64,000 nucleotides of DNA from Patescibacteria group bacterium. Lineage in GTDB: Bacteria; Patescibacteriota; Patescibacteriia; Patescibacteriales; UBA12465. The notes beneath the pieces were generated by a model that saw only the letters and a list, made by a program, of their open reading frames with translations, had not been told where the DNA came from and ran no database searches. Positions 407 through 22,096 of this stretch are shown one piece after another. Each line of letters begins with the position of its first letter. Within the stretch, counting starts at the first letter, position 1. A program made the position numbers and the translations under genes. The stretch is from assembly GCA_041651095.1 (NCBI GenBank), contig JBAZJV010000004.1, forward strand, positions 7,735 through 71,734. Direction: 5' to 3'.

Positions 407-1294
407 ATGATCAATCCCCGCTTTTTATTTCTTGGTCTCGGCTTATCGGCCATCGCCATCATCTATCTGATCATCTGGGCGCTCATGAAATCAGGACCGA
501 AGGCCTACCGTTTTATTAAATCCCTGGCCTTTTCTTTATGGCCAGCCTTGCGCCAGAACGAATATATCGCCGAATTCATCTACCAGCAACCCCGGCTGAA
601 CCATTTCATCAAGAAACGCTCTAGCCGCCAATCCTTCGTGGGCCTGCCGCTCACTATCCTGGGTCTGGCCTTTTTATATGTACTATTCGCCTTCCTGGGG
701 CTGGTAGAAGATTTTATCACTTCCGACCAGATTGTCGCCATCGACTCTCGGCTGAACAATTTCCTGTTGCTTTTCCGCTCCGAGCATTATGTTAAGATCT
801 TCCTGGCTATTACTACGCTCGGACGCGCCAGAGTCATTATCAGCTTGTTGCTGGCCGCCAGTCTGCTCTTCTGGCTATGGCGCAAAAGAGCCTATATCCT
901 GCCGGCCTGGTTGAGCTTGGGCGGAGCCAGCTTGCTTAATTTCCTTAGCAAATGGGCTTTCCACCGGCCGCGGCCGGCGTTTCCGGTCTATATTGAATCC
1001 AATTTTTCTTTTCCGAGCGGCCATGCCACCGTCGCTGTTGCAGCCTACGGCTTCCTGACTTATTGTTTGTTAAGAAATACTAAAAAATTGCCGAATCGCG
1101 CTTTAGTCTTCCTGGCTGGTTTACTGATTATCGCGGCTATTGGTTTTTCCCGACTATATCTCGGCGTACATTATTTGAGCGATGTCCTGGCCGGCTATCT
1201 TTTAGGCGCTCTTTGGCTGACCATGGGCATCAGCCTAACTGAATGGCAGCTGGACCGGCAAAAGCGCCAAGAGACGGAGGCTGCGCCTAATTAA
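407..1294 (+). CDS. PAP2-family phosphatase (undecaprenyl-diphosphatase / phosphatidate phosphatase-like) membrane protein
   Basis: PAP2 motifs KWAFHRPRP (KX6RP), FPSGHAT (PSGH), SRLYLGVHYLSD (SRX5HX3D); multiple TM helices. Confidence 0.7.
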   Translation: MINPRFLFLGLGLSAIAIIYLIIWALMKSGPKAYRFIKSLAFSLWPALRQNEYIAEFIYQQPRLNHFIKKRSSRQSFVGLPLTILGLAFLYVLFAFLGLVEDFITSDQIVAIDSRLNNFLLLFRSEHYVKIFLAITTLGRARVIISLLLAASLLFWLWRKRAYILPAWLSLGGASLLNFLSKWAFHRPRPAFPVYIESNFSFPSGHATVAVAAYGFLTYCLLRNTKKLPNRALVFLAGLLIIAAIGFSRLYLGVHYLSDVLAGYLLGALWLTMGISLTEWQLDRQKRQETEAAPN

Positions 1295-1330
1295 AAACCC
1301 GGTCTTTTGGATCGGGTTTATTGTAAAATT
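1295..1330 (+). terminator. rho-independent terminator (AAACCCG...CGGGTTT + T-rich)
   Basis: inverted repeat 1295-1301/1313-1319 followed by ATTGTAAAATTTT. Confidence 0.45.
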
Positions 1331-1339
1331 TTGAGAGAT

Positions 1340-1588
1340 TCACCGGAAACTGGCACATAAACAATTGGCCTCCCACTCTTCTGCGCTATTATCCGGTGCA
1401 GCCCTGTAAATCATTTCTGCCAGCATGACATCTCTAAGCTCTTTAGCTCGCCGGCACAAAAATGTAAATGCCTTACTTTTTAGGGCGCCGGCTCGACGGG
1501 ATTTATAAACTTTTAAAACGAAATAAAATGTCCCGTAAGGGTGCACGATGACAAAACAATTCACCAGAAAGAAAAAAAATTTTTTCAA
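1340..1588 (-). CDS. hypothetical protein
   Basis: ORF only; no recognisable motifs. Confidence 0.2.
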   Translation of the reverse strand: MKKFFFFLVNCFVIVHPYGTFYFVLKVYKSRRAGALKSKAFTFLCRRAKELRDVMLAEMIYRAAPDNSAEEWEANCLCASFR

Positions 1589-1616: not shown

Positions 1617-1901
1617 TTAATTAATTAGCGCTAAACAAATATCGCAAAGATAGCCTAAGCCGACTCTGTGGTATCTTAAAACGAACAATTTGCGCTCCGC
1701 TTCTTTACGAGCGATGCCTTTTTCGGGAAAGGAAAAATAAATCGCTTCAATTTCCGAAATAGTATTAACCATGTTGAGCTGCCATAAAGAATATTTATCC
1801 CAGGCAACCAGTATGTTTCTTTCTTCTTCGCCGCCGATAGTAGCGGCCAGATAAGCCTGTTTGTAGGCTTCAGCGTTTGGCAAATTGATTTCTTGAATCA
1901 T
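1617..1901 (-). CDS. hypothetical protein
   Basis: ORF only. Confidence 0.3.
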   Translation of the reverse strand: MIQEINLPNAEAYKQAYLAATIGGEEERNILVAWDKYSLWQLNMVNTISEIEAIYFSFPEKGIARKEAERKLFVLRYHRVGLGYLCDICLALIN

Positions 1902-2023
1902 TTTTACCTCTATTGTTAATTTACGAAATAATGACTTATTTTATAAAAAAATAATAACATAACTTTATAGTTATGTCAATGATATAAAAATCCTAAATAT
2001 TCAAACAATTTACACGTCTTTTT

Positions 2024-6885: not shown

Positions 6886-8142
6886 TTATACCTTTTTCAT
6901 CAACAAAATAGCGCTATTTCTATACCGGTCAACCCAATTATCAAGATAGGCGAAATCATGACCGGCTAATTCACGGACGACCTGCTTAACCTGGTATTTC
7001 TTTGACCTAAAGACTTCGATGCCGCCGTAATGCAAGACAATGAAACCGGTTTTTGGTTCATAACTCCATTTGGCCCGGCGATAATCGATCTGGCTGCTTT
7101 TTACTATTTGATTGACGGCGAAATTCAAATAATAAGGGTTAGCGCGGTACTTCTTAAAGGTTCGCGCAATATGATTCCTCAGCTGGAAACCAAGCAACAG
7201 CTTATCTCCCGGCCGGGTATTGCTCTGAAAAACCTTAAAGATTTCTGCTTGGTCACGAGAATTTCCAATCGTGTTCCCGACGCAGATATGAATGCTGTGC
7301 TTGGTCTGACCGAGATCCAGACGGGATCGATCCAAATTCTGAAATATATCGCAAATCAGATTGGCGCTAATATTTTTTCGCGGATATTCGATCTGCTTAG
7401 CTGCCAGTTTGCCGGCAAAAATATCCAGGAAGTCCTGACTGACATCAATGGCATTAAGTTTGACCGGCGACCGCGATTCGATCTGCCAGCGCACCAATTC
7501 CATCTCGGTTTCGGCCGTACCGATACCGTAGTAGACTTGGGTGTGATTGGCAATCTGCGGATAAATGGACAACCGATATTGCTCCAGGATAGCCAACTCG
7601 TTATTCCCGCACTTATAATGTACGGGGTTACAGAAAGCTACCATCAACCAGTCGCGGGGATTACGATACCACTGTTCGCCTTGTAATTCATGGCGACTCA
7701 ATTGGTCATTCAGCCTTTGATTTAATATTTCTTCCTTTTTGCGGCTAGCATAGGCTAGCGGCGCCAAAGCGATGACCGGCTGCGGTTTCAGGTATTCGCC
7801 AACTTTCCGGCTCTTGATGACCAGCCTGGTTTTAACTGGCACGGTTCGCGTGTCGTCAAAGCGATCAAGCCCGGATCTCATTTTTATGGAATCAGGATCA
7901 GAACCTGATGGGAAGGCATATTCCATCATATCCTTGGCTATTATTTTCCCGTGCCGCACCAAATAAGTGCCTAATGGACTGGATTCGATCACTTCACCGT
8001 CGCCCAATATATAGTGAAGATATGGACCGGAATATAATTCGGAATAATTCACCGTATCAATGGAGAATAAGCTGAGCAAGAAAACGAAAAAAACAAATAA
8101 GGCTTTAATGGCCCGTACTGCCTGAGTTTTGAACTTTTTCAT
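6886..8142 (-). CDS. EgtD-family (histidine N-alpha-methyltransferase-like) SAM-dependent methyltransferase with N-terminal signal/membrane anchor and ~130-aa extra N-terminal domain
   Basis: C-terminal half parallels the EgtD family by recall (YYGIGTAETEMELV ~ ELGSGTSEKT; ICVGNTIGN ~ FLGSTIGN; PGDKLLLGFQL ~ PGDSLLLGTDL; YRRAKWSYEPKTGFIVLHY ~ FEHVAKWNSDEERIEMWL); recall-based, needs an HMM check. Confidence 0.5.
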   Translation of the reverse strand: MKKFKTQAVRAIKALFVFFVFLLSLFSIDTVNYSELYSGPYLHYILGDGEVIESSPLGTYLVRHGKIIAKDMMEYAFPSGSDPDSIKMRSGLDRFDDTRTVPVKTRLVIKSRKVGEYLKPQPVIALAPLAYASRKKEEILNQRLNDQLSRHELQGEQWYRNPRDWLMVAFCNPVHYKCGNNELAILEQYRLSIYPQIANHTQVYYGIGTAETEMELVRWQIESRSPVKLNAIDVSQDFLDIFAGKLAAKQIEYPRKNISANLICDIFQNLDRSRLDLGQTKHSIHICVGNTIGNSRDQAEIFKVFQSNTRPGDKLLLGFQLRNHIARTFKKYRANPYYLNFAVNQIVKSSQIDYRRAKWSYEPKTGFIVLHYGGIEVFRSKKYQVKQVVRELAGHDFAYLDNWVDRYRNSAILLMKKV

Positions 8143-16978: not shown

Positions 16979-17071
16979 ATAGTTGATTTTATGAATAAAT
17001 GTCTCTTTATATTATATCAAAAAAACCATTAAAATAAAAAAATAGCAAAATAATATTCTTCTTAAGTAAAA

Positions 17072-17100
17072 GAAAAAACGAGTTCTTCACTCGCTTTTTC
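17072..17100 (-). terminator. rho-independent terminator immediately 3' of tRNA-Asn
   Basis: minus strand AAAAAGCGAGTGAAGAACTCGTTTTTTCTTTT. Confidence 0.4.
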
Positions 17101-17105
17101 TAGAG

Positions 17106-17407
17106 CTCCCGGGGTGGGATTCGAACCCACGACCAATTGGTTACACTTATCCTCATGTTTCCATGCGGGGTGGACTATATCATCATCCGCTGAATACGGA
17201 TGCGGGGCGCTTCGGGCCGCCCTATGGGCGGACCTACTCCCTTTCGGGATAGTCTCTGAACCTTCTCTATAATAGAGCTTGGCTGCTGATTACCATATCC
17301 TTTCAGATTTAGGCTTCCAGCAATTCACCTCGTTTTCACCCTCTGATTGCTCAAAGGGGCTGCGTTTATGTTCACAGCCAACTGCGCTACCGCTGCGCTA
17401 CCCGGGA
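17106..17407 (-). tRNA. tRNA-Asn(GUU) interrupted by a 230-nt group I intron (exons 17374-17407 and 17106-17143; no encoded CCA)
   Basis: exons fold into cloverleaf: acceptor UCCCGGG/CCCGGGA, D-arm GCGC-AGCGGTA-GCGC, anticodon stem GUUGG/CCAAU with loop CUGU|UAA, variable UGGUC, T-arm GUGGG-UUCGAAU-CCCAC, G73; near-identical to E. coli tRNA-Asn outside the stems. Confidence 0.85.
17144..17373 (-). other. group I self-splicing intron (IC3-like) in anticodon loop between U35 and U36
   Basis: R element GUUCAGAGACUA (plus 17250-17261), S element GAUAUAGUCC (17172-17181), Q-like AAUCAGCAGCCAAG, IGS GCAGCC pairing exon GGCUGU with U.G at splice site, terminal G. Confidence 0.8.
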
Positions 17408-17505
17408 ATATTAAGTTGTTTTTCGGGTTGGCGCTCCTGGCGCCCGGTCCCAAAAATAAAATATTTCAAACGAAATATTTACTAATATGATAGCAAATAC
17501 CGGAG

Positions 17506-17979
17506 TTATGTCAATAAGCCTATCAGCCGCCCGGCCAGCCAGCTAAGAGCCAGGACCAGGAGGGCGATGCTCAGGTGTTCGGCGATCATATTGAACGGCT
17601 TTTTTCCGTTTACTTTGGCAATATAATAATTCAGGAGCACTAGAATTAAGATGCCCCAGCCGACGGCAACCACCAAGGCCCAGGGCATCGGCAACGCTAG
17701 TACCGGCACCAGAAAACTCAGGCCGAAAACCAGCTTGGCAACGAAAGTATAACCGGTCGCTTTCCAGATCTCCTGGTGGCTGAAGTTCCCTTCTGATTCC
17801 TTGACCAAGTGGACGCCCAGGGAATCGGAAAACGCGTCGGCAATTGCTATCGTCATGATGCCAGCGGCCACGGCCAAGCGCGATCCGGTACCGGTCTCCA
17901 AGCCGATGATCAGCCCCAGGGTCGTGATGCTCGCCGAAGTCAGACCGAAGCTGATGCCGACTTTTTCTGCTTTATCCAT
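17506..17979 (-). CDS. small membrane protein (VIT1/DUF125-like)
   Basis: 4-5 TM; weak recall-based similarity. Confidence 0.3.
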   Translation of the reverse strand: MDKAEKVGISFGLTSASITTLGLIIGLETGTGSRLAVAAGIMTIAIADAFSDSLGVHLVKESEGNFSHQEIWKATGYTFVAKLVFGLSFLVPVLALPMPWALVVAVGWGILILVLLNYYIAKVNGKKPFNMIAEHLSIALLVLALSWLAGRLIGLLT

Positions 17980-19018: not shown

Positions 19019-20296
19019 CTAGTAGTCCCTCAGTTTCTCCAAGCCCTTGAACTTGCGGATCTTCTCCAGGGCCTTGGACTCTATCTGCCGGATGCGTTCG
19101 CGAGTGACTTCAAATTCCTGACCGACTTCTTCCAGAGTATGGGCCACGCCGTCAACCAGCCCGAAGCGCATTTCCAGAATCTTCTGTTCGCGCGGCGAGA
19201 GCTGGGATACGATGTTTTTGACGTAATCACGGAGCAGCTGCAAAGCGGCCGCCCGATCCGGGGTGACATTCTTCACGTCTTCGATGAAGTCCTCCAGGGT
19301 GGAGTCTTCGCCGTCATCGCCGATGGTGGTCTCCAGAGAAATGGTATCCTGGGAAATCTTCATAATGTACCTGACTTTCTCCAAAGGCTCGCCCATTTCC
19401 GAAGCGATTTCCTCGGCTAATGGTTCGCGGCCGAGTTCCTGGATCAGGTTACGCTGGACTTGCTGGAACTTGTTGATGTTTTCCACCATGTGGACCGGAA
19501 TGCGGATGGTGCGGGATTGATCGGCTAAGGCGCGCGTAATGGCCTGGCGGATCCACCAGGTGGCATAGGTTGAAAACTTAAAGCCCTTGCGGTATTCGAA
19601 TTTCTCTACCGCCCTGAACAAGCCGATATTCCCTTCCTGAATAAGGTCCAGGAGGCTCATGCCCTTGGCGCCGGCGAATTTCTTGGCAATGGAAACGACC
19701 AGGCGCAGATTGGCCTCGATGATTTTCTTTTCCGCTTCCTTATCACCCTTTTCCTTGCGCTTGGCCAGCTCCACTTCTTCTTCGCTGCTTAACAGCGGCA
19801 CTTTGCCGATCTCTTTCAAGTACATCTGGATGGAATCGGCGCTGAGTTTCGAGAGATCGATATTCAGGGCGGCCTGATGCGCCGCGGCCTTGCCGGTTAA
19901 AGGCGGTTCCTGGGCTTTCTTTTCGGCGGTATCCAGGATGCGGCCGGAGTCTTCCATGATGCGCACGCCGCTACGCTGCAGCTCGCCCAAAAAGACGTCA
20001 AAGTCATAGACGTATTCTTCCACTTCCGGAAAAAGATATAATAGTTCGGTCTCGGTAATGAAACCGCGCAGGCGCCCCTTATCAATCAGTTTTTTCATCT
20101 GCTCTTCCGTCGGTCTCGCGACCTGATGCTCTTCGCGGCTGTGCTTGATTTTAGGCTTGGAGTTATGATGCGGCTTCTTGGATTTATTTTTGCTATTTTT
20201 AGCCAATTTATTTCCAAGCGGCCTCTTGGCTTTAGTGGTCGTATGCTTGGCCTTGGTCGCGGTCTTCTTGGTTTTTTTAACGGCTTTCTTAGCCAT
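19019..20296 (-). CDS. rpoD: RNA polymerase sigma-70 factor RpoD with Lys-rich N-terminal tail
   Basis: regions 2-4: [39 protein letters not shown]. Confidence 0.9.
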
Positions 20297-20305
20297 AGTG
20301 ATAAG

Positions 20306-22096
20306 TTATAAAGTCATTAAATCTTTTAATTCGCCCATCAGCTTGTTCAATTCTTCGCTGTTCCCGGTTTTCTCGGCTTGGGCAATAGACTTTTGCAGTT
20401 TCTGGATCTTTTTCTGCCGGCCGTATTTCTTTAATTCGCCGATGATACCGACGATTTCGGCCTTGGCCTGCGCCGGCTCGAAATTATAAAAATCCTTTTC
20501 ACCTAAAAGGATGAGCTTATCCAATAATTTTTCATCCCCCGCCCCTTGCTCTTCCAGATACAGCCGGAAATTATCATAGTCCAAAGAGGCAGTCTTATTA
20601 TAGTAGATTATAAAACCCTTGTAAAACCGGGAAAAATCATGGCTCAGGTAATCCGGCTCCAGGTTGCTCACCCCGTAATTGACGAATTCCGGAAACTTGA
20701 CGAGGAGGGACAGGAATAGTTCCGCCAATTTGTCTTCCCGGCTCAGTTGCGGCGCTACCGGAGCCGCGGCCTTAGCTACTACGCCGCTCGCCGGCCCGTT
20801 CTTCTTCATGAGCGCGCCCAGCTTCTCCCTCAATTCCTGCTCGTTGGCGCCGATTTCCTGGCTCAGCTTGGTCAGCCAATAACTGCGCTCGATGTTGTTA
20901 TGGACATTGGCGAGCATCGCGAGCATCTGGCCCTCTATTTCCCGCCGGTCTTCGGTCTTATCCAGATCCAGTCCGGCGCTTACTTTATGGAAATAATACT
21001 CCAGCATGGGCTGCGCGCGTTCTACGGCCTCCTTGAAATCATCCGGATCGTTGCGCAGACATTCGTCCGGGTCCTTGCCCGAGGGCAAAGTGATCACTTT
21101 CAGGTTCATTTCCTGGGCCAGACATTCCTTGATGCCCCGGTCGGCGGCCATCTGTCCGGCTTTATCCATATCGAACAAGAGGGCGACGTTTTCCGTGAAA
21201 CGCTTAATAAGTGTCACCTGCTCGGTGGTCAAGGCCGTACCCGAGGAAGCGACCACGTTCTGGAAACCATGCTGGTGGCAGCTGATTGCGTCCATCTGGC
21301 CTTCGACGACGATGGCCAGATCAGCCTCGCGGATAGCGCTCTTCGCCTTGTTCAGGCCGAATAAGACCCGGCTCTTGTCATAGACCTTGGTTTGGGGGCT
21401 ATTGATGTACTTGCCCATCTTTTCCGTCTTTTCCTTTTCCGGATTGACCCGGGCGGTAAAAGCGATAATGTTATTGTTGCTGTCCCAGATCGGAAACATT
21501 ATCCGGTCGCGAAAGCGGTCGTAATAACCGCGGCCGCCTTCTTTCTTGGTAATCAGTCCGGCGGCGAAGATCTCTTCATCCGTATACTTCTGGCCGCTTA
21601 ATGGCCGCTGTTTCAAAAAGGAATATAATTTATCCCAGGCATCCGGGCTGTAGCCTAATTGCCAGTCCTTGATGATTTCCTCGCTCAGGCCGCGCCTGGT
21701 TAAGTATTCCCTGGCCTTGGCGCCCAGCGGTTCGCTAAGCACATGGGCATAGTATTTGCCGGCCAGCTCCAAAATATCCAGCAGACGGTTGCGCTCGGAA
21801 TAATCGCGGCTATTTTCATAATGCAGGGTCACGCCGGCTTTCGGCGCCAGGAGGCGCAGGGCTTCCATAAAGCCCAGGCCTTCTTTTTCCATGACAAAAC
21901 TGAAGACGTCTCCACCCCGGCCGCAGCCGAAACAATGCCAGATCTGCTTTTCCGGGGAAATCACGAAAGACGGCGTCTTCTCGTTATGGAACGGACACAA
22001 AGCCTGGAAGTTCGCGCCCACGGCCCGGACGGGCACGTATTCACGGATCACTTCCACGATGTCCAGTTTGGATTTGATGTCTTCGGCTTGGCCCAT
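20306..22096 (-). CDS. dnaG: DNA primase
   Basis: CHC2 zinc finger CPFHNEKTPSF...HCFGCG; TOPRIM IVVEGQMDAIS. Confidence 0.9.
   Translation of the reverse strand: MGQAEDIKSKLDIVEVIREYVPVRAVGANFQALCPFHNEKTPSFVISPEKQIWHCFGCGRGGDVFSFVMEKEGLGFMEALRLLAPKAGVTLHYENSRDYSERNRLLDILELAGKYYAHVLSEPLGAKAREYLTRRGLSEEIIKDWQLGYSPDAWDKLYSFLKQRPLSGQKYTDEEIFAAGLITKKEGGRGYYDRFRDRIMFPIWDSNNNIIAFTARVNPEKEKTEKMGKYINSPQTKVYDKSRVLFGLNKAKSAIREADLAIVVEGQMDAISCHQHGFQNVVASSGTALTTEQVTLIKRFTENVALLFDMDKAGQMAADRGIKECLAQEMNLKVITLPSGKDPDECLRNDPDDFKEAVERAQPMLEYYFHKVSAGLDLDKTEDRREIEGQMLAMLANVHNNIERSYWLTKLSQEIGANEQELREKLGALMKKNGPASGVVAKAAAPVAPQLSREDKLAELFLSLLVKFPEFVNYGVSNLEPDYLSHDFSRFYKGFIIYYNKTASLDYDNFRLYLEEQGAGDEKLLDKLILLGEKDFYNFEPAQAKAEIVGIIGELKKYGRQKKIQKLQKSIAQAEKTGNSEELNKLMGELKDLMTL

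Follow-up and report, generated by a model that had tools for sequence, protein, structure and literature searches.

Group I introns that interrupt the tRNA-Asn(GUU) genes of Patescibacteria between anticodon-loop positions 35 and 36 were described by Nakagawa, Amikura, Omae and Suzuki (bioRxiv 10.1101/2025.07.03.662931, July 2025; mSystems, January 2026, PMC13011429), who noted that tRNA-Asn and tRNA-Asp were seemingly absent from complete Patescibacteria genomes and traced this to introns at that unusual position. Among 95 complete genomes they counted 15 tRNA-Asn(GUU) cases with IA-type introns at 35/36; 25 of 28 introns at this site belonged to subgroup IA, and none of the Patescibacteria tRNA introns to IC, the subgroup of 81% of bacterial tRNA introns. 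For GCA_016700035.1 (Asn), they demonstrated GTP-dependent self-splicing in vitro, sequenced the exons after ligation and included a control in which omega-G was changed to C; the intron of GCA_001029755.1 (Asp) also self-splices in vitro. Here we analysed a 64,000-nucleotide (nt) stretch of a Patescibacteria group bacterium contig (JBAZJV010000004.1, hereafter the window), which contains an interrupted tRNA-Asn(GUU) gene of this kind.

The gene covers 302 bases on the minus strand (17407–17106) and consists of a 34-nt exon, a 230-nt insert and a 38-nt exon. Our preferred explanation, to which we give a probability of about 95%, is that a Patescibacteria bacterium has here a functional tRNA-Asn(GUU) gene interrupted at 35/36 by a self-splicing, 230-nt group I intron of subgroup IA type that lacks an endonuclease gene. 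Joining 17407–17374 to 17143–17106 in silico yielded a 72-nt cloverleaf that ARAGORN identified as tRNA-Asn(gtt) and listed as 73 bases, while a default ARAGORN run over the whole 64-kb window reported zero tRNA genes. CCA is not encoded, as G73 is followed by CUC. Both G73 and the anticodon are identity elements of AsnRS in E. coli, and aminoacylation with asparagine (or with Asp and subsequent transamidation) is predicted for the tRNA-Asn class.

Homologues were collected by scanning metagenomes with the 3'-junction pattern GATGANATAGTCCN{15,45}AAGTGTAAC, which returned at least 120 loci; together with the window and a Microcoleus contig (L110), 123 matches were examined. Of these, 96 could be fully rebuilt, and in silico splicing at 35/36 yields tRNA-Asn(gtt) in every case; the remaining 27 are mostly cut by contig ends yet carry the same 3' exon. 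Among the matches listed, the rebuilt loci comprise 57 distinct exon pairs, intron lengths range from 185 to 898 nt, and the closest introns are 80–88% identical to that of the window. Fifty homologous interrupted pre-tRNAs from metagenomes, the window included, were aligned (alignment A1). In this alignment the four tRNA stems, including the anticodon stem formed across the intron, are 99% paired, with both-sided changes in 15 of 21 pairs. The U1-A72 pair is invariant (50/50). Acceptor ends of the form TCC...GGAG are shared with two intron-less tRNA-Asn genes, and 142 of 145 tRNA-Thr genes, a by-product of a genome-contig pattern scan that served as negative control, begin with G.

The insert itself was assigned to group I by Rfam model RF00028, which matched 17384–17151 on the minus strand over model positions 1–253 of 253 with 88.2 bits (gathering score 50; E = 3.5e-21), and no other Rfam family reached its gathering threshold in the window. 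All three core elements, GUUCAGAGACUA, GAUAUAGUCC and AAUCAGCAGCCAAG, are present. Across A1, the named intron structure pairs in 92.9% of 3928 cells, compared with 35–44% when the 3' partners are slid by 1–3 columns, a percentage for which the unslid register is favoured because the window sequence served as the template for drawing the structure. Independent of that are the compensatory (both-sided) changes, found in 61 of 87 intron pairs, with a covariation score of 0.459 versus 0.05–0.09 for the slid controls. The minimum free energy (MFE) of the fold is −82.9 kcal/mol (z = −4.27), none of 200 shuffled sequences folds equally well, and MFE folding alone recovers P1, P2, P4–P6, P7, P7.1, P7.2, P8 and P9, although it cannot draw the P3/P7 pseudoknot. 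Chance is excluded because of the E-value, the MFE z-score and the covariation in 50 homologues.

No same-strand open reading frame (ORF) of at least 60 amino acids (aa) was found in the gap between the neighbouring genes; on the sense strand the longest ORF has 42 aa, and an antisense ORF of 68 aa is mechanical. Since the P1 loop (L1) is only 8 nt long, the window intron represents the form without an endonuclease gene. The preliminary description of this stretch had proposed a tRNA-Asn(GUU) split by a 230-nt, ORF-less group I intron at exactly these coordinates, ending in G, with R, S and Q-like elements, a guide GCAGCC pairing with exon GGCUGU through a U.G at the 5' splice site, no encoded CCA and a terminator after the 3' exon. 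All of this held: the three elements lie on the minus strand, every helix could be drawn, the wobble recurs in 50 of 50 homologues, and a hairpin with a T-run follows the 3' exon.

Table 1. Features of the interrupted tRNA-Asn(GUU) locus in the 64,000-nt window, on the minus strand; intron position n corresponds to window position 17374 minus n.
Feature	Window position	Strand	Intron position	Description
5' exon	17374–17407	−		TCCCGGG TA GCGC AGCGGTA GCGC A GTTGG CTGT; tRNA positions 1–35: acceptor 5' strand, D-arm, anticodon stem 5' strand, loop C32 U33 G34 U35
Group I intron	17144–17373	−		230 nt, subgroup IA-like, no ORF; starts GAACAUAAAC GCAGCC, ends AUAAGUG
3' exon	17106–17143	−		TAA CCAAT TGGTC GTGGG TTCGAAT CCCAC CCCGGGA G; U36 A37 A38, anticodon stem 3' strand, variable loop UGGUC, T-arm, acceptor 3' strand, discriminator G73
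P1	17358–17379	−		exon GGCUGU (17379–17374) and intron G1 paired with C10-GCAGCC (17364–17358)
P2	17340–17357	−	17–23 with 28–34	hairpin, 7 bp, GCAA tetraloop
P3, 5' strand	17326–17332	−	42–48	CGAGGUG; partner 17203–17209
P4-P5-P6 domain	17260–17322	−		helices 82–100% paired with compensatory changes (A1)
P4			52–57 with 85–90	UGCUGG/UCAGCA
P5			61–81	CCUAAA...UAUGG motif, GAAA cap
P6 and P6a			91–114	
P7, 5' strand	17250–17256	−	118–124	G-A-GACUA; bulged A119; guanosine-binding helix
P7.1	17238–17249	−	125–136	UCCC-GAAA-GGGA; GAAA loop
P7.2	17214–17234	−	140–160	GGUCCGCCC-AUA-GGGCGGCCC
P3, 3' strand	17203–17209	−	165–171	CGCCCCG; forms P3/P7 pseudoknot; RF00028 and A1
P8	17184–17202	−	172–190	hairpin, CAUCCG/CGGAUG
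P7, 3' strand	17172–17177	−	197–202	UAGUCC; within GAUAUAGUCC element
P9	17151–17168	−	206–223	hairpin, GAAA tetraloop
Terminal guanosine (omega-G)	17144	−	230	preceded by tail AUAAGU, followed by U36; motif AAGUG/UAAC
Promoter-like site	17487–17514	−		TTGACA, 16-nt spacer, TG-TATCAT; ~80 nt upstream of tRNA position 1
Intrinsic-terminator-like hairpin and T-run	17071–17101	−		5 nt past G73
rpoD	19019–20296	−		upstream of tRNA, same strand
dnaG	20306–22096	−		upstream of tRNA, same strand

The guide GCAGCC occupies intron nt 11–16, and the U35.G11 wobble marks the 5' splice site; the extension pair of P1 (intron nt 1 with nt 10) covaries in A1, being GC in 18, AU in 14 and CG in 11 sequences. 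P2 shows both-sided changes in all 7 pairs (92.9% paired), P8 in 4 pairs (84% paired) and P9 in 5 of 6 pairs (87% paired). P7 is invariant and 100% paired in all 50 sequences, an invariance that is neutral as covariation evidence, while the omega-G is invariant by construction, its motif having belonged to the search pattern. Between P7 and the 3' strand of P3 (17214–17249) the intron has two additional hairpins, P7.1 and P7.2; roughly half of the 50 homologues possess them, and in those they are 82–90% paired, with compensatory changes. Extra hairpins in this place are reportedly a classical mark of subgroup IA, as Michel and Westhof are said to have set out in 1990. The CCUAAA...UAUGG motif of P5 may correspond to the 11-nt GAAA-tetraloop receptor, which it resembles, and the GAAA loop of L9 likely docks into this putative receptor, as in other small group I ribozymes.

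Several points weigh against a fully functional gene with the architecture given above. The third pair of P3, A44.C169 (17330/17205), is mismatched in the window and is flagged in the RF00028 alignment; it is Watson–Crick in 42 of 50 relatives (A-U in 21, G-C in 21) and also unpaired in 7 others, and the A.C mismatch might lower activity. Inspection of the sequence revealed no convincing P10 pairing between the start of the 3' exon (UAAC) and L1 or the guide region. The IA-type assignment is a putative one, taken from the position of P7.1 and P7.2 and not from subgroup covariance models, although it agrees with the published subgroup statement for 35/36 introns (PMC13011429). Splicing at this locus we infer from homologues whose GTP-dependent self-splicing at 35/36 is known. 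Finally, our view of the genome is the 64-kb window, and the tRNA-Asn copy count is therefore limited to it. Residual doubt concerns the efficiency with which a copy bearing the P3 A.C mismatch splices, and whether this is the sole tRNA-Asn gene.

In the proposed mechanism, transcription of the unit would start at its own promoter-like site and end at its own terminator, and the intron would fold into P1–P9 with P7.1 and P7.2. A free guanosine nucleotide bound in P7 would then attack the bond after U35, marked by the U35.G11 wobble in P1; the last G of the intron would next occupy the guanosine site, and the freed 3'-OH of U35 would attack the bond before U36, joining the exons and restoring the anticodon loop CUGUUAA. 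RNase P, 3' trimming and CCA addition would complete the tRNA. It is conceivable, though we think it very improbable, that the intron is retained as an RNA-level checkpoint based on guanosine-dependent splicing in a tRNA-Asn gene that may be the sole one of a minimal genome, an extension of the speculation that Patescibacteria introns may replace lost protein regulators (PMC13011429). If so, the supply of mature tRNA-Asn would be tied to the GTP pool or growth state, and the window-specific P3 A.C pair would make this copy unusually condition-sensitive.

Alternatively, the locus could be a decaying or crippled copy whose intron splices poorly, given the P3 mismatch, the lack of P10 and the lack of an endonuclease, while the cell relies on another tRNA-Asn gene. 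The P3 mismatch, flagged by the RF00028 scan and unusual among relatives, is the kind of defect this would entail, and a view restricted to 64 kb leaves room for a second gene; yet all other helices are intact, the invariant core (P7, J8/7, guide GCAGC, omega-G) is the same as in 49 relatives, and the seven relatives lacking a standard pair at the same P3 position show that the window is not alone in this. Moreover, the tRNA exons are perfect and, among the matches listed, recur unchanged at 9 other metagenomic loci, the promoter-like site and terminator are retained, and interrupted and uninterrupted copies for one anticodon rarely coexist in genomes (PMC13011429). We consider a crippled copy very improbable and retain the interpretation as a functional tRNA-Asn gene.

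The position of the splice sites also had to be decided, since the insert allows two formal boundaries, CUGU/G...GUG/UAA and CU/GUG...AAG/UGUAA, each with a U at −1 and an intron that ends in G. Intron-aware ARAGORN (-i), proposed in the preliminary description as a check, did detect the 230-nt intron but placed it two bases upstream and named the host tRNA-Thr(tgt), i(33,230); only the joined exons were recognised as tRNA-Asn(gtt). This mislabel as tRNA-Thr(UGU) at 33/34 has been reported for the published introns (PMC13011429). In all 50 homologues the wobble partner of the guide G is U35, while U33 sits in a U-A pair. Because of the U35 wobble, the Asn-type U1-A72/G73 exons and the published sequencing of the spliced product of a homologue, the U35/U36 boundary is supported, restoring the anticodon loop CUGUUAA, and the preliminary description had rightly preferred it; the ligated-exon junction predicted for this boundary is GGCUGUUAACC.

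A tRNA-Thr(UGU) host in which this 230-nt intron separates U33 from position 34, the reading suggested by ARAGORN and formally permitted by the U before the 5' splice site and the G ending the intron, is rejected as effectively refuted, since its −1 U would be paired with A in P1 (50/50) in place of the conserved U.G at U35, the exons share U1-A72 and G73 with intron-less tRNA-Asn while 142 of 145 tRNA-Thr genes begin with G1, and the identical two-base ARAGORN/tFind artefact has been documented and resolved by sequencing a homologue with the CUGU/...GUG/UAAC junction (PMC13011429).

Turning to the surroundings, the site upstream of the tRNA is strongly sigma-70-like, with 11 of 12 consensus matches and an extended −10 TG, and is a candidate promoter by its sequence; the downstream hairpin and T-run would likewise serve as a terminator. 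As the two elements flank the gene, it looks like a self-contained transcription unit. The ~80-nt leader holds a GC-rich hairpin, GGCGC-CAGGA-GCGCC, within GGGACCGGGCGCCAGGAGCGCCAACCC (17425–17451, minus strand), and is otherwise AT-rich. Besides dnaG and rpoD, two further genes lie upstream on the same strand, one encoding a protein with a PEP-utilizing domain and the other a small membrane protein. The RpoD, DnaG and PEP-utilizer proteins of the window exactly match NCBI MFA5155328, MFA5155329 and MFA5155327, respectively, all named "Patescibacteria group bacterium" and encoded on a contig of 233,933 bp; the name places the host in this phylum.

Among the matches listed, an RpoD homologue is encoded upstream on the same strand in 25 metagenomic loci, which include 20 of the 53 loci with at least 1.5 kb of upstream sequence. 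In 24 of them RpoD is 50–94% identical to that of the window, the exception being L214 (34%). DnaG often precedes RpoD, the linked loci including L151, L229, L222, L239, L162, L186, L171, L169 and L182; the gap between rpoD and the tRNA varies from 29 to ~2100 nt, with extra genes inside it in the window and L229. Linkage of dnaG, rpoD and tRNA-Asn across divergent RpoD proteins suggests that the interrupted gene has long been passed on vertically over a wide clade and, together with the number of loci (at least 120), that it is common within some of the phylum. The genes on either side lie on two Logan contigs, L001 and L122 (SRR8542065), which end inside the 5' exon (~17385) and the 3' exon (~17134), respectively. 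That assembly therefore breaks both before and after the intron, probably because k-mers of the tRNA exons also occur in other genomes of the sample, which illustrates why such loci drop out of short-read bins.

Longer relatives of the intron carry ORFs. About 32 of the 96 rebuilt introns, among the matches listed, are at least 440 nt long and have an ORF inside L1. In introns of 440–690 nt (for example, L242, L158, L233 and L230), an ORF of ~105–120 aa lies in the P1 loop and ends just before the guide GCAGC. These ORFs carry a CxxC...HH...CANCHREVH motif, and two of ~108 aa that were scanned gave weak Pfam HNH matches below the cut-off (E 0.0015–0.008). The 898-nt intron of L123 (Ga0163155_10000242), which ends at match 7407–7451, carries a 215-aa endonuclease ORF with a clear LAGLIDADG_2 match (Pfam E 1.6e-25), whereas only HNH-family endonucleases were reported in Patescibacteria tRNA-Asn introns (PMC13011429).

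Two matches come from contigs filed as viral. In L244 (IMGVR_UViG_3300025600_000123, ~1217–1527, plus strand), filed as viral in IMG/VR, an interrupted tRNA-Asn is 82.6% identical to the window over 316 nt and has a similar AT-rich promoter region; the contig is either a misfiled Patescibacteria fragment or a phage-borne copy. L243 (IMGVR_UViG_3300000786_000009, ~1253–1316, minus strand) contains a different group I intron with a GUUCAGAGACUA and GAUAUAGUCC core outside any tRNA, and its upstream ORF resembles an endonuclease; it shares the AAGUG/UAAC junction by chance, and the AT-rich phage contig appears to be protein-coding where the intron sits.

The genome-contig scan used GTAANNNNNNGGTCNNNGGTTCRANTCC (omega-G followed by U36 A37 A38), a pattern that also matches ordinary tRNA-Thr (G35 U36 A37 A38). 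Its matches were dominated by tRNA-Thr, and the only true interrupted tRNA-Asn among those listed was L110 (JARCMA010000601.1, Microcoleus sp. MP8IB2.171; 1620–1990, plus strand), a tRNA-Asn(GUU) whose group I intron at 35/36 is 302 nt long (RF00028, 76.5 bits). In the survey of relatives envisaged in the preliminary description, the same insertion site was found in 96 of 96 rebuilt loci, and the genome scan contributed L110 among the matches listed.

The value of the locus lies in annotation. Default ARAGORN misses the gene, and the intron-aware mode mislabels it as tRNA-Thr; the metagenome-assembled genome (MAG) would therefore look as if it lacked tRNA-Asn, and its completeness would be scored too low, a pitfall of missing tRNAs that has been warned of (PMC13011429). 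The locus adds one draft-genome example to the published class and leaves the knowledge of group I introns unchanged.

Classical bacterial hosts of group I introns are tRNA-Leu(UAA) at 34/35 and tRNA-fMet at 33/34 (both in cyanobacteria), tRNA-Ile(CAU) (Azoarcus) and tRNA-Arg(CCU) at 36/37 (Agrobacterium). These are self-splicing group I ribozymes that, like the window intron, sit in the anticodon loop, are mostly 200–300 nt long and without ORFs, and have an exon U in the P1 wobble; they differ in host and site, and being overwhelmingly IC3, they lack P7.1 and P7.2. The cyanobacterial L110 shares with the window the host tRNA, the insertion site and the 3' junction motif GGAUAAGUG/UAACC, but belongs to another phylum and has a longer intron (302 nt), an extra L1 hairpin and different P6 and P7.x peripheries. 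It is near-identical to cyanobacterial entries labelled IA1 in Table S5, such as GCA_022701255.1 (PMC13011429).

The preliminary description knew of no Asn(GUU) host for such introns, a statement overtaken by the literature, in which both host and site are published (15 of 95 genomes, and Asn.4Ug as cited there; PMC13011429). The tFind class "Asn.4Ug" (Williams KP 2020, bioRxiv 10.1101/2020.01.27.920355) is credited in PMC13011429 as the first listing of the site and, as described there, denotes an intron after anticodon-loop position 4 (U35) of a bacterial tRNA-Asn, as in the window. That preprint expands the four classical interrupted tRNA types to 21 cases and presents a purely computational listing.

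The closest published counterparts are the Patescibacteria introns of PMC13011429, which share with the window the phylum, host tRNA, anticodon, insertion site, IA-type architecture and mislabelling as tRNA-Thr. The published short forms are 222–259 nt long, compared with 230 nt here, and most members likewise lack an endonuclease gene. Five Table S3 sequences can be aligned with the window intron over its full length, at 58–65% global intron identity (74–88% for the exons), with P3, P4, P6, P7, J8/7 and P9 as common blocks in the same helix order. In GCA_016699245.1 (Paceibacteria), the ...GUUCAGAGACUA-[P7.1/P7.2]-GAAGCGCC... layout is as in the window, and the two have in common P7.1, ...GACUAUCCC-loop-GGGAGUAG..., and the next hairpin. 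The differences are that the window derives from a draft MAG outside the 95 complete genomes, that it carries the P3 A.C mismatch, and that its gene lacks the CCA encoded by the published Saccharimonadia genes. With host and site already known, the locus is one more member of a class that has been published and validated by experiment.

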